A DNA stretch of 64,000 nt, from assembly GCA_963733055.1 (NCBI GenBank), contig CAVTBR010000001.1, positions 1,312,001 through 1,376,000 on the forward strand. Direction: 5' to 3'. Under the pieces are notes generated by a model. The model did not search any database, was not told the origin of the DNA, and saw only the letters and a list, made by a program, of their open reading frames with translations. This document shows positions 516 to 40,985 of the stretch, in pieces. How positions within the stretch are numbered: position 1 is the first letter of the stretch; every line of letters starts with the position of its first letter. Both the position numbers and the translations under genes were made by a program. Source of the DNA: Candidatus Bathyarchaeota archaeon (lineage in GTDB: Archaea > Thermoproteota > Bathyarchaeia > 40CM-2-53-6).

Positions 516-2048
516 TTGTGCGGTTTCGTTACAGATGGCGGGGATGGAGCGCTCAGTTTGTTAGATGACCCCGAAACAACCCGCCAAAATAGTACCATTG
601 ACCCGGCCCGTAGCACCGCCTATCAACGGTACAAGATCGTCACCAAACCTACTCCGCCCCGAAAAAAACTGCCCCCACCATTCGATCCACGAGTAAACAA
701 GATAGGGCTTGCGAGAATCATCTTGAAGGAAGCATTCACGTATGGATTGAAGCTGCGTGAGAAAGAGTACAGGCAGGCTCTTGTGAGTAGGCCATGCATT
801 TACGGAACATTCAGCGGCCCGCTCGGCGGATTCCATCCCATTAAGGAAAAATGTACTGGGTGCATGCGATGCGTACAAGAGTATCCCAGCGTTTGCACGG
901 TCGGCCGTAACCCCGAATTCTACCGGTTCGCTGACTCTTACTGGGCTTCGGAGGGCGCTGCAACAACCAGCGGTTCACCAGTCGCCACGGTTCTGTATGA
1001 GGCCGAGACTGGGAAGATACCGATCAAGGGGATGGGATACAAGGGGCCATTCTCCGGTCCAGGTTGGGATTCGATCTGGACTGATATGTCTGAAATTGTC
1101 AGGCCAACTAGGGATGGGGTCTATGGTCGAGAATTCATCTCAACACTAGTAGATGTCGGCAGCAAGAGGAAGTCCATCCAATTCAACAATAAAGATAACC
1201 CCTTTTCCAAAACCATTGAAGTATCTTTACCGATAATTTTCGACTATCTACCCCCCAACCTCAACAGTCAGACAATACTGGAATCAATCGCAGGCGCGTC
1301 CGTTCGAACCGGCACGATCTACATAGCAACACCGGCTCAGGCAAACCAACTCCGCGCAACCGATAGCGACCAATTGGCCCCACTAATTTCCTGTGATGAG
1401 GTGGCCGATTCACCGGTGCTCCGTGATGCGCGCCTGATTGAACTCGCAAGTTACGACGTCTCAATCGTTGAGAAGGTTCGGAGCTTTAATCCCAACGCCC
1501 CAATCTCAGTTCGCTTGCCACTAACTGTTAACTCTGCCAAAACGGCAGCCGATCTGGTTCGAAATGGGATCGATATCATACATCTCGTAGCCAACTACCA
1601 CGGACAATCATGGGACAAAGTTGAACCGTCGCATGTTAAGGACATGATTCGGAAAATCCATACCACACTCGTAACTGAATCACTCAGAGACGATGTCACG
1701 CTTATCGCGAGTGGGGGAATCACTAGAGCTGAGCATGTGCCGAAAGCAATAATCTGCGGGGCCGACCTTGTTGCCATCGATACAACAGTTCTCGTAGCGT
1801 TGCAGTCAACATTTCTAGGCGAATGCGTCTCGGCTGAATCAGGGCGCATCTCTCCGGAGAAGTTTGATTTGAAGTGGGGTGAGCAGCGGCTCGTCAACTT
1901 GCTTTCTTCGTGGCACGATCAACTCATCGAAATACTCAGCGCTATGGGAATACGTGATGTGAGAAGGCTCCGTGGGGACGTCGGTAGGGCCATGTTCAAC
2001 GAGGAACTTGAGAAGGAGGCGTTCGGAGATATCACTCGCAGAAACTGA
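516..2048 (+). CDS. Glutamate synthase-related FMN-binding subunit with N-terminal 4Fe-4S ferredoxin-like segment (start uncertain)
   Basis: CTGCMRCVQEYP Fe-S segment; WTDMSEIVRPTRDG; LIASGGITRAEHVPKAIICGADLV FMN-barrel motif; C-terminal LSAMGIRDVRRLRGDVGR. Confidence 0.85.
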   Translation: MCGFVTDGGDGALSLLDDPETTRQNSTIDPARSTAYQRYKIVTKPTPPRKKLPPPFDPRVNKIGLARIILKEAFTYGLKLREKEYRQALVSRPCIYGTFSGPLGGFHPIKEKCTGCMRCVQEYPSVCTVGRNPEFYRFADSYWASEGAATTSGSPVATVLYEAETGKIPIKGMGYKGPFSGPGWDSIWTDMSEIVRPTRDGVYGREFISTLVDVGSKRKSIQFNNKDNPFSKTIEVSLPIIFDYLPPNLNSQTILESIAGASVRTGTIYIATPAQANQLRATDSDQLAPLISCDEVADSPVLRDARLIELASYDVSIVEKVRSFNPNAPISVRLPLTVNSAKTAADLVRNGIDIIHLVANYHGQSWDKVEPSHVKDMIRKIHTTLVTESLRDDVTLIASGGITRAEHVPKAIICGADLVAIDTTVLVALQSTFLGECVSAESGRISPEKFDLKWGEQRLVNLLSSWHDQLIEILSAMGIRDVRRLRGDVGRAMFNEELEKEAFGDITRRN

Positions 2049-3309
2049 ATCCATCGAGAAACACAGGAAACTAATCCACCAAGGCCTGCAACTTCTACCC
2101 ACCCTCAAATATGGCATGCCTGGAGGCTTCGGTAACAAACGTTGGACACCTGAACTACTCTTCGCAACTTACGAACAGGCCACAACGGGGAAACCGCCGC
2201 AATCCATTGAGTATAAAGTAGGGGACTCGGGAGGCGGGTTCGACCGGCTCGACTTCAAGAACATTCATCCCAACACCCGCCTCCCTGATGAGGAAGTCGA
2301 TCTCTCGATTGACTTGAACCGCCGAAGTCACGGCCCAAAGATTTCCATCCCTATCCCGATCTACGGGGCTGGGATGTCTTTCGGTTCCATCAGCCTCAGC
2401 TTCATGCTCTCTCGAGCCCTGGCAGCGAAACGACTTGGAACCTTCACCTCAACCGGTGAGGGGGGCTATCCTCCTCCACTCTTGGAGTACAAAGATAACG
2501 TGATCACGCAGGTCGCGACCGGGATGTTCGGTGTACGTGAGGATACGATTCAGGCCGCGAGGATTGTTGAGTTCAAGTATGCTCAGGGGGCGAAACCTGG
2601 GCTGGGCGGGCACCTGCTCGCTGACAAAGTGACCTCCGAAGTGGCGAATATGAGGGAATCCTTGCCCTTCACCTCACTCTACTCCCCGTTCCCCTTCCAC
2701 AGCGTCTACTCTGTTGAGGACCATAGGAAGCACGTGGATTGGATACGCGCCGTAAACCCAGGCTGCTTAGTCTCAGTCAAAGTCTCGACCCCGGTCGACG
2801 TCGACATGGTTGCAATCGGGAGTTACTACGCAGACGCGAACATTCTACACGTAGACGGTGGATATGGGGGCACCGGGGCGGCGCCCGAGATCGCTAAGAA
2901 GAACATTGCGATGCCAATCGAATATGCAATCCCGAAAGTTCACCGCTACCTGGTCGGCGAAGGGGTTAGGGATGAAATTGTGGTGATGGCGAGCGGAGGA
3001 ATACGAACCGCCTACGATGTTGCAAAGGCCATCGCACTTGGGGCCGATGGCTGCGTCATCGGATCTGCTGAGGCGGTAGCTGTGGGTTGTACTCAATGCG
3101 GAAACTGCGAACACGGCAGAGGTTGCCAAGTTGGAATCACTACCACCGACCCTGAACTCAGCCAACTCATAACCGTCGAATGGGGCGCACAAAGAATCAT
3201 CAACATGTACTCCTCCTGGGCTAAGCAATGGCGGACGATTCTCGCAAACCTCGGACTGCGTTCAATCAAAGAGCTCAGGGGACGAACAGACCTCCTGGTC
3301 TACGGGTGA
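1972..3309 (+). CDS. Glutamate synthase FMN-binding subunit (GltB2-like); start uncertain
   Basis: GMSFGSIS, TGEGG, EFKYAQGAKPGLGGHL, DGGYGGTGAAP, ASGGIRTAYDVAKAIALGAD, CTQCGNCEHGRGC Fe-S motif. Confidence 0.9.
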   Translation: MGTSVGPCSTRNLRRRRSEISLAETESIEKHRKLIHQGLQLLPTLKYGMPGGFGNKRWTPELLFATYEQATTGKPPQSIEYKVGDSGGGFDRLDFKNIHPNTRLPDEEVDLSIDLNRRSHGPKISIPIPIYGAGMSFGSISLSFMLSRALAAKRLGTFTSTGEGGYPPPLLEYKDNVITQVATGMFGVREDTIQAARIVEFKYAQGAKPGLGGHLLADKVTSEVANMRESLPFTSLYSPFPFHSVYSVEDHRKHVDWIRAVNPGCLVSVKVSTPVDVDMVAIGSYYADANILHVDGGYGGTGAAPEIAKKNIAMPIEYAIPKVHRYLVGEGVRDEIVVMASGGIRTAYDVAKAIALGADGCVIGSAEAVAVGCTQCGNCEHGRGCQVGITTTDPELSQLITVEWGAQRIINMYSSWAKQWRTILANLGLRSIKELRGRTDLLVYG

Positions 3310-20585: not shown

Positions 20586-20740
20586 TGGTGCGGGGAAGGG
20601 GATTCGAACCCCTGAAAGCTTACGTGCCCTGTGCGGGCTCTACGCTACAGGATCCCTTATCCAAGTCAACTCTTCGATCTTAAGTTTAACACCGCGATTT
20701 TCGCGGTCCTGCCCCTTTGACCTGGCTCGGGTATCCCCGC
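20586..20740 (-). tRNA. tRNA-Leu(TAA) with three introns (30/31, 37/38, variable arm)
   Basis: Removing 20686-20707 (22 nt), 20654-20678 (25 nt) and 20620-20639 (20 nt) gives an 88-nt cloverleaf with encoded CCA; each junction forms a BHB-type motif. Confidence 0.9.
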
Positions 20741-20832: not shown

Positions 20833-20966
20833 GGGCCCGTAGCTCAGGTTGGATAGAGCGGCAGAACGGTTGCCGAACCCCCTAAGGAACACCGGAAAAA
20901 GCTGTAGAACCCAGTGAGTGGAACTGGGTGCAGAGGTCCGGGGTTCAAATCCCCGCGGGCCCGCCA
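20833..20966 (+). tRNA. tRNA-Arg(CCT) with three introns (30/31, 37/38, 45/46); C at position 33
   Basis: Introns 20865-20877 (13 nt), 20885-20899 (15 nt), 20908-20935 (28 nt); mature 78 nt with A20 Arg determinant and CCA. Confidence 0.85.
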
Positions 20967-30654: not shown

Positions 30655-30769
30655 GGGCCCGTAGTCGAGCTAGGATTAAGACACAGAGACACAGCGAAGT
30701 CGTGCAAGCCTTCGGAGTTTCGACAGAGAAAGCCTGGGATCCGGGGTTCGAATCCCCGCGGGCCCGCCA
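30655..30769 (+). tRNA. tRNA-Arg(TCG) with two introns (29/30, 37/38)
   Basis: Introns 30687-30707 (21 nt) and 30716-30730 (15 nt); mature 79 nt with CAGGC-CT-TCG-GA-GCCTG anticodon arm, A20 and CCA. Confidence 0.88.
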
Positions 30770-36078: not shown

Positions 36079-36211
36079 CCGAACCAACTTTGCCTCAAGG
36101 AACTGCTTCATGAATTTAACCCGCCCGCTTAACTGAGAGGGATACCCTTCAGGAAACGCGGAAAATCTCAGTGAATGCTTATAGGATACGGACCTGAGCC
36201 TTTGATTCGGT

Positions 36212-36416
36212 CCCGCGGTAGCTCAGCCTGGTAGAGCTTCCGAGTCCCTCTTCACAAGGAGTGACGGAGACGCTGTAGGTGTGCGCCCAAGGCGCATCCA
36301 CGTCAGCCTGCTAGGCTAACAACGGATACCGGAGTGTCGCTGGAGAACCTCGCTGCAAGGTTCGGCGAATTCAAAATAGAGTTCAGAACTCTATGAAACT
36401 CCGGCCCGCGGGACCA
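36212..36416 (+). tRNA. tRNA-Tyr(GTA) with four introns (30/31, 37/38, 53/54, 59/60)
   Basis: Introns 36243-36271 (29 nt), 36279-36327 (49 nt), 36344-36369 (26 nt), 36376-36399 (24 nt); mature 77 nt with C1-G72 and A73; BHB-type motif at every junction. Confidence 0.9.
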
Positions 36417-38735: not shown

Positions 38736-38840
38736 GCCCTGGTCGTTCAGTGGTCTAGGATGACGGCCTGTCACGTCGTCGACGCGGGTTCGAATCCCGC
38801 CCAAAGGAGCAGCCTGAAACTCTCCTGGCGAGGGGCGCCA
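38736..38840 (+). tRNA. tRNA-Asp(GTC) with a 29-nt intron in the 3' acceptor strand (68/69)
   Basis: Removing 38804-38832 restores CCAGGGC-G-CCA, which pairs with 5' GCCCTGG; strict BHB. Confidence 0.9.
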
Positions 38841-40825: not shown

Positions 40826-40985
40826 GGGCCCGTAGCTCAGTCAGGTAGAGCATCGGTGACGCCGTGTGGCGTTGGTGAGGCTTTTACCTCTGGGCGATTC
40901 GAACCCATGGGAAGCCACCCGAAAAGCTCGGCTTAGAAGCCTTCTTGGGGAAGGGTCCCGGGTTCAAATCCCGGCGGGCCCGCCA
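40826..40985 (+). tRNA. tRNA-Lys(TTT) with three introns (30/31, 37/38, about 43/44)
   Basis: Introns 40857-40879 (23 nt), 40887-40916 (30 nt), 40923-40952 (30 nt); mature 77 nt with TCGGG-CT-TTT-AA-CCCGA arm; third boundary uncertain by 1-2 nt. Confidence 0.87.

Follow-up and report, generated by a model that had tools for sequence, protein, structure and literature searches.

A tRNA-Tyr(GUA) gene with four bulge-helix-bulge introns in a Bathyarchaeia archaeon

The locus at positions 36212-36416 (+) of a 64,000-nt stretch of contig CAVTBR010000001.1 from a Candidatus Bathyarchaeota archaeon (the whole stretch that was analysed, here called the window) is, as judged from its sequence and that of its relatives, very probably a functional tRNA-Tyr(GUA) gene and apparently the only one of this Bathyarchaeia archaeon. 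It is divided into five exons (31, 7, 16, 6 and 17 nt) by four introns (29, 49, 26 and 24 nt), which make up 128 of its 205 nt and interrupt the tRNA at 30/31, 37/38, 53/54 and 59/60 (tRNA numbering; Table 1). The first-pass annotation of this DNA had proposed the same division into five exons and four introns of the bulge-helix-bulge (BHB) type. Re-reading of the sequence agreed with it in every junction, and splicing in silico, an independent parse, covariation among orthologs and the splicing enzymes encoded in the genome all support this assignment.

Anatomy of the tRNA-Tyr gene

When the exons were joined by script from their coordinates, the resulting 77-nt sequence was called by ARAGORN as a full-length tRNA-Tyr(gta). 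Removal of the introns restores a canonical cloverleaf with zero finder penalties, which comprises a 7-bp acceptor stem opening with C1-G72, A73, a 5-nt variable loop, the T-loop TTCAAAT and an encoded CCA. The C1-G72 pair and A73 are identity elements of archaeal tRNA-Tyr, and the spliced product carries both, together with the anticodon GUA and a class I variable loop, as in an archaeal-type tRNA-Tyr. CCA is genomically encoded in 13 of the 14 tRNA genes inspected in the same genome.

Table 1. Features of the tRNA-Tyr gene and of the window (window positions; H, central helix; h, outer helix and h', inner helix, in the primary transcript)
Feature	Position	Strand	Description
TATA-like box CTTATAGG	36178-36185	+	likely promoter element; ends 27 nt before the gene start
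Exon 1, 31 nt	36212-36242	+	acceptor 5' strand, D arm, anticodon stem 5' strand to nt 30
Intron 1, 29 nt	36243-36271	+	at 30/31; H 4/4, h' 3 bp (second stem extends h'), h 2 bp
Exon 2, 7 nt	36272-36278	+	GCTGTAG, nt 31-37; anticodon GTA at 36275-36277
Intron 2, 49 nt	36279-36327	+	at canonical 37/38; H 4/4, h' 3 bp, h 1 bp
Intron 2 element	36308-36317	+	complementary to D-loop/D-stem 36225-36234; 10 bp including 2 G-U
Exon 3, 16 nt	36328-36343	+	nt 38-53: anticodon stem 3' strand, 5-nt variable loop, T stem 5' strand
Intron 3, 26 nt	36344-36369	+	at 53/54; H 4/4, h' 6 bp, h absent in every splicing context; relaxed HBh'/BHL
Exon 4, 6 nt	36370-36375	+	TTCAAA, T-loop nt 54-59
Intron 4, 24 nt	36376-36399	+	at 59/60; H 4/4, h' 7 bp, h 0 bp
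Exon 5, 17 nt	36400-36416	+	nt 60, T stem 3' strand, acceptor 3' strand, A73, CCA
Divergent EndA paralog, 188 aa	26729-27295	-	PF01974 + PF02778; without the catalytic His stretch

The unspliced gene was called neither by ARAGORN, with or without its intron option, nor by Rfam at gathering score, so that an annotation made with standard finders would lack tRNA-Tyr. We also parsed the locus with a query-free finder, a script of our own without knowledge of tRNA-Tyr, which reads backward from N-CCA through a generic cloverleaf grammar and jumps only over candidates for a BHB core. The four-intron parse was its sole solution at the locus and carried zero penalty. A strict genome-wide run covered 9,057 CCA-anchored ends for which a complementary 5' strand was present, and 50 of them gave some solution. 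Only at the tRNA-Tyr locus did a single, zero-penalty parse with at least four introns also have ARAGORN support. The other many-intron solutions of this run were discarded as penalised, ambiguous or not tRNA-like.

All four introns show a 3-4-3 BHB core with the central helix fully paired in the correct register. The helices and bulges named in the first-pass annotation are present at each junction: CTTC/GGAG with bulges CG|A and AC|G at 30/31, CTGT/ACGG with AG|G and AT|A at 37/38, CGCT/GGCG with GG|A and AA|T at 53/54, where the motif had been called relaxed, and TTCA/TGAA with AA|A and AC|T at 59/60. The introns depart from the strict hBHBh' form (h and h' lengths in Table 1), and three of the four motifs are relaxed (HBh'/BHL-like) in the primary transcript. 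Such relaxed HBh'/BHL motifs are counted within the BHB-type intron family in the available text of two papers (PMC4090602, PMC3241643).

Upstream of the gene, the octamer CTTATAGG occurs at an identical offset in nine of ten distinct four-intron genes of the same genus and in one three-intron gene (L027). It fits an archaeal TATA element and is a likely promoter. We infer that transcription from this conserved box would give a precursor of ∼205 nt, in which four tandem hairpin modules (central 4-bp plus inner helix) would each place the 5' splice site in a 3-nt bulge. An alpha/beta splicing endonuclease would cut all eight sites, and RtcB would ligate the exons to give a tRNA of 77 nt with its CCA already in place. 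Among the sequencing-run records with this DNA, there was one of DNA and none of RNA type.

Splicing enzymes and the order of intron removal

Two paralogs of the splicing endonuclease EndA are encoded in the genome, each with PF01974 and PF02778. The catalytic one lies on another contig (G000:C3:228623-228877 (-), 185 aa, G000 being this genome); it keeps the Tyr...His stretch, and among PDB entries it is matched best by chains of crenarchaeal EndA (3p1z_B, E 3.6e-39). Aligned with it, the divergent paralog of the window has a 4-residue deletion at the position of the His, and we take it for the probable structural (beta) subunit of the enzyme. The gene for this His-less protein lies 9 kb upstream of tRNA-Tyr, and the window contains six or more interrupted tRNA genes. 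The ligase RtcB is encoded as well (PF01139, 576.8 bits, 507-aa open frame). By its sequence the endonuclease is of the broad-specificity two-subunit type, and a heterotetramer is predicted. The available text of PMC4090602 and PMC3241643 links two-subunit EndA to relaxed motifs and describes alpha2beta2 enzymes that cut BHL and HBh' motifs besides BHB.

The first-pass annotation had gone on to suppose that the introns are removed sequentially. Its structural premise is correct: the outer helix of the 37/38 motif is complete only without intron 1 (1 bp before its removal, 6 possible afterwards), and that of the 59/60 motif only without intron 3 (0 bp, then 5 bp). These outer helices are the anticodon stem for intron 2 and the T stem for intron 4, each broken by the upstream neighbour, and the motifs of introns 1 and 3 are unchanged by removal of any other intron. 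The step from this premise to a strict order, in which introns 1 and 3 precede introns 2 and 4 and the latter become substrates only after their neighbour is gone, was not borne out, and we regard such an order as unlikely. The gain in outer helix does speak for it, as do the ordered removal of introns shown by RT-PCR for a three-intron tRNA of Cyanidioschyzon merolae (PMC3728597) and the slower cleavage of BHL than of BHB motifs by a crenarchaeal enzyme, as stated in the available text of PMC3241643. However, intron 3 is without an outer helix in any context, and because of this a relaxed, helix-less motif must be cleavable anyway; the alpha/beta type of EndA accepts relaxed motifs; and the H + h' modules do not overlap (gene coordinates 26-58, 62-114, 127-156 and 159-186), such that all four could form together.

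Folding gave no sign of a fixed order either. We computed partition functions (37 C, nearest-neighbour model) for the primary transcript and 14 partly spliced intermediates, and the ensembles displayed neither all motifs nor any clear splicing order. The central-helix probability of introns 1 and 2 was 0.00-0.07 in every context, and that of intron 4 fell from 0.46 to 0.08 once intron 3 was removed; in neither intron 2 nor intron 4 did removal of the neighbour raise it. Introns 3 and 4 share a base, T54 (36370): it opens the exon after the 3' splice site of intron 3, within the 3' bulge, and is also where the central helix of intron 4 begins, and the two motifs compete for it. Overall, the splicing order is probably a kinetic preference and not a requirement.

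Conservation among relatives and the intron 2 element

BLAST searches with the gene covered 41 relatives and then 105 genomes of the order, 84 of which had matches; the locus was parsed in 50 of these 84 genomes (30 from the first search and 20 added after the second). The first-pass annotation had taken the four-intron state to be a rarity that four-intron genes in relatives would undo, and such genes proved common: tRNA-Tyr has four introns in 21 of the 50 parsed genomes and five in 15 more, with three in seven, two in six and one in a single genome. The five-intron genes (L034, L037, L038 and L130-L141, from genomes G025, G034, G037, G059, G091, G093-G096, G098-G100 and G102-G104) carry their additional intron at 9/10 in 14 cases (23-29 nt, mostly in one other family) and at 44/45 in one, and in none of the 50 parsed genomes are all six used positions combined in one gene. 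By the query-free finder, ten of them had a unique zero-penalty solution and the gene of G059 had six zero-penalty solutions, each with five introns; the remaining four were parsed by homology. For the distinct four-intron orthologs, the strict finder returned a unique zero-penalty solution in 10 of 12, and in permissive mode it gave the four-intron parse for the other two, uniquely in one and beside a weaker five-intron alternative in the other. Across families, this essential gene has retained an architecture of four to five introns.

The 37/38 intron was present in every parsed ortholog. Within the genus of this archaeon, four introns were found in 11 genomes, three in four and two in five, and because these counts vary, introns 1, 3 and 4 are polymorphic. 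Beyond the order, an exact match to the exon 1 31-mer was found in 84 stretches of a species-representative collection (Bathyarchaeia, Nitrososphaeria, Brockarchaeota, Caldarchaeales and Conexivisphaerales), and the genes outside the order mostly have one or two introns.

Two genus-mates differ in the surroundings of the gene. In one of them (L027 of G004; 1676-2488 (-) and 2634-2750 (+)), a 270-aa LAGLIDADG_3 ORF adjoins the CCA end of the three-intron tRNA-Tyr in antisense orientation, and a 5'-truncated second copy of tRNA-Tyr, from exon 2 onward and with introns 3 and 4, follows ∼1 kb downstream. BLAST indicates the same arrangement in G011. From the layout, the back half of the gene seems to have given way to a homing-endonuclease cassette. 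By the tRNA-Tyr of the window a LAGLIDADG ORF is absent, the neighbours being weak HTH/AsnC-like ORFs, a thioesterase and a methyltransferase. Genus-mates that differ in intron number (2, 3 or 4), together with the cassette, offer a tractable system for the study of intron gain and loss.

To ask how the introns are constrained, we scored the pairs of the four BHB modules in an alignment of 15 orthologs (A1; 47 pairs, 704 pair cells). Pairing was found in 94.2% of the cells, compared with 36-41% when partners were slid, and 22 of the 47 pairs showed changes on both sides; 0 of 500 shuffles reached the observed values. The central helices were 98-100% paired. Compensatory change was seen in all seven pairs of the intron 1 inner helix and in five of six pairs of h' in both intron 3 and intron 4. 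Across ten distinct sequences of the genus, all 77 exon columns and 70 of the 128 intron columns are invariant, and exons 2 and 4 show no variation in any of the 15 aligned orthologs.

These data bear on two other readings of the locus. A different parse, with fewer or other introns, or as a trans-spliced or permuted gene, is very unlikely: the sequence by itself leaves splice sites in A-runs (AA|A) formally ambiguous, and a homology-guided aligner misplaced exon 4 in two distinct orthologs (four loci; intron 4 loop TTCAAA), but the BHB register fixes each junction, the query-free search left a single solution and the exon 4 mis-parses were resolved once BHB cores were required, and since the five exons are collinear within 205 nt, neither trans-splicing nor permutation is needed. 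Least probable of all is that the locus is a pseudogene in decay, or tRNA-like pieces brought together by chance, with Tyr decoding supplied elsewhere, for although the standard finders make no call, the genome is ∼96% complete such that a second gene could be unassembled, and a 5'-truncated copy stands beside the Tyr gene in two genus-mates, the introns have changed in compensatory fashion around invariant exons, conservation extends to the promoter box, the same architecture recurs in 21 of the 50 parsed genomes of the order, and no second tRNA-Tyr was found in this genome (one full-length BLAST match and one credible C1-G72 seed among 68).

Within the four-intron gene, intron 2 is the best-conserved intron, with 36 of its 49 columns invariant in the genus. 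It contains an element complementary to the D-loop and D-stem of exon 1 (Table 1), and this helix is present in the MFE fold of the primary transcript. The core of the element, roughly CAGCCTAYCAGGC, is conserved in Bathyarchaeia, Nitrososphaeria, Brockarchaeota and Caldarchaeales. Among 73 distinct 37/38 introns of tRNA-Tyr, 62 match the D-loop nonamer at 9/9 positions (Watson-Crick or G-U) and seven more at 8/9, in a set that includes three rows mis-targeted through an exon 1 shifted by the 9/10 intron; in controls a 9/9 complement arose at ∼1% (21 of 1,460 with a permuted target, 13 of 1,460 with a shuffled intron). Substitutions in the element are almost all transitions and keep the pairing with G19, G20, U18, U21 and G23, and a change of C17 to U in the D-loop has its counterpart in a G-to-A change of the intron in four sequences of the 73-intron set and in one of a second alignment (A2). 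There, 95.5% of the D-loop:element cells are paired, with one compensatory change. The shuffle control on A2 was not significant (57 of 500), because the D-loop side is nearly invariant.

A rival local hairpin within intron 2 (AGCC/GGCT) is 90% paired; it showed zero covariation and was set aside. In box C/D guide introns, as in archaeal pre-tRNA-Trp, a C box (RUGAUGA) and a D box (CUGA) flank the antisense element. Intron 2 has neither TGATGA nor CTGA, and TAAC, GCAC or TCAC follows its antisense element, and a box C/D guide was likewise rejected. Together, the sequence comparisons make pairing between the D-loop and intron 2 suggestive. A model that we put forward tentatively, and to which we would give somewhat less than an even chance, is that the 37/38 intron carries a selected D-loop antisense element of 9-10 nt that would keep the precursor in a fold other than the cloverleaf, with the 30/31 module, where present, inside it, and may thereby stage splicing or an intron-dependent modification. 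If so, the universally retained intron of tRNA-Tyr would be a functional RNA element and no mere baggage.

Interrupted tRNA genes in other lineages and in the rest of the genome

Heavy interruption of tRNA genes is already known as a phenomenon. The first-pass annotation had placed four introns at or beyond the described range. This holds true against the reviews, three introns per tRNA gene being the most that is stated in the available text of PMC4033280, and falls against a 2026 Asgard preprint (Goswami et al. 2026; 10.64898/2026.10.13.758758), whose available text reports up to five in one gene. The intron number of this tRNA-Tyr is thus above the maximum of the reviews, within the current record and the norm in its order.

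The closest parallel is with the Asgard archaea. The available text of PMC11291895 gives introns in 92-95% of Asgard tRNA genes, with several in over half of them, and that of the preprint gives 2.2 intervening sequences per gene, compared with 1.54 in Pyrobaculum calidifontis (10.64898/2026.10.13.758758). As far as these texts go, Asgard tRNA genes share with those described here introns of BHB type, many at non-canonical positions, a mean of ∼2.2 per gene and frequent omission by standard finders. In contrast to the Asgard genes, those studied here belong to another phylum, and one gene keeps its introns at the same four or five positions across families within an order. The available text of the preprint makes no mention of the word Bathyarchaeia, and our literature search found no description of tRNA introns in Bathyarchaeia.

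Multi-intron tRNAs of Thermoproteales resemble the present gene in their non-canonical BHB/BHL introns, in an alpha2beta2 EndA and in motifs completed by removal of a neighbour (available text of PMC4033280, PMC4090602 and PMC8450103). Three introns is their stated maximum, whereas the present gene has four (five occur in relatives) and includes exons of only 6 and 7 nt; the tRNAscan-SE 2.0 paper mentions two or three introns and 0.84 introns per gene in Thermoproteales (available text of PMC8450103). Split and tri-split tRNAs (Nanoarchaeum, Caldivirga) are likewise assembled from pieces at BHB-like junctions, some at identical break positions, according to the available text of PMC4033280, but their pieces are separate transcripts or loci, whereas the exons here are collinear in one gene. 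Nuclear tRNA genes of C. merolae also hold multiple introns, located in the D arm, at 37/38 and in the T loop, and RT-PCR experiments showed that their processing order follows BHB stability (PMC3728597). They differ in belonging to a eukaryotic nucleus, in having three introns at most and in that RT-PCR evidence. Stepwise processing of nested or adjacent introns and cleavage of BHL motifs by a heterotetrameric enzyme were reportedly described by Tocchini-Valentini et al. in 2009, with two- and three-intron pre-tRNAs as substrates.

The interruption of tRNA genes in this archaeon extends well beyond tRNA-Tyr. Rfam gave 13 tRNA hits in the whole genome, and roughly two in three of its tRNAs escape detection or are mis-called, as tRNA-Tyr is. 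Our census started from 68 CCA-anchored seeds, of which 40 were examined, 35 solved and five unsolved, and one spurious and one unreadable solution were dropped. This left 33 genes with 73 introns between them, ∼2.2 per gene, a rough seed-based estimate from home-made predictions, many of which came from permissive modes and have alternatives. Two genes had no intron, seven had one, 12 had two, seven had three, four had four (Tyr, Glu-TTC, Gln-CTG and Pro-GGG) and one, ambiguous, had five. Besides tRNA-Tyr, the many-intron loci are predicted at C1:1437744-1437903, C3:209273-209429, C3:546744-546926 and C2:238942-239164 (Glu-TTC, Gln-CTG, Pro-GGG and a 223-nt gene), the 223-nt gene with at least four or five introns.

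On this estimate, the Bathyarchaeia of soil and peat would be a second archaeal lineage besides Asgard with about two introns per tRNA gene. This bears on whether heavy tRNA interruption had independent origins in different lineages and on the role of relaxed-specificity endonucleases in permitting it.

Several interrupted tRNA genes lie near tRNA-Tyr. Three are located at 20586-20740 (-), 20833-20966 (+) and 30655-30769 (+) of the window, and one of the three is a tRNA-Leu(TAA) with three predicted introns. The 134- and 115-nt genes have good T arms and an encoded CCA, and the finder was unable to solve them. A reading of the 134-nt locus at 20833-20966 (+) (C1:1332833-1332966) as a second tRNA-Tyr was rejected as spurious, with G1-C72 and a D arm deleted by the parse. 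The 160-nt locus at 40826-40985 (+), with an Rfam score of 44 bits, was read by eye as a tRNA-Lys(TTT) with three introns (∼23, 30 and 30 nt, at 30/31, 37/38 and near 44); the finder solution for it had an unreadable anticodon. The tRNA-Asp called by ARAGORN and Rfam at 38736-38808 has an unpaired 3' acceptor strand. By eye, the gene extends over 38736-38840 (+) and holds a candidate 29-nt intron at 38804-38832 in the 3' strand of the acceptor stem, removal of which restores CCAGGGC-G-CCA.
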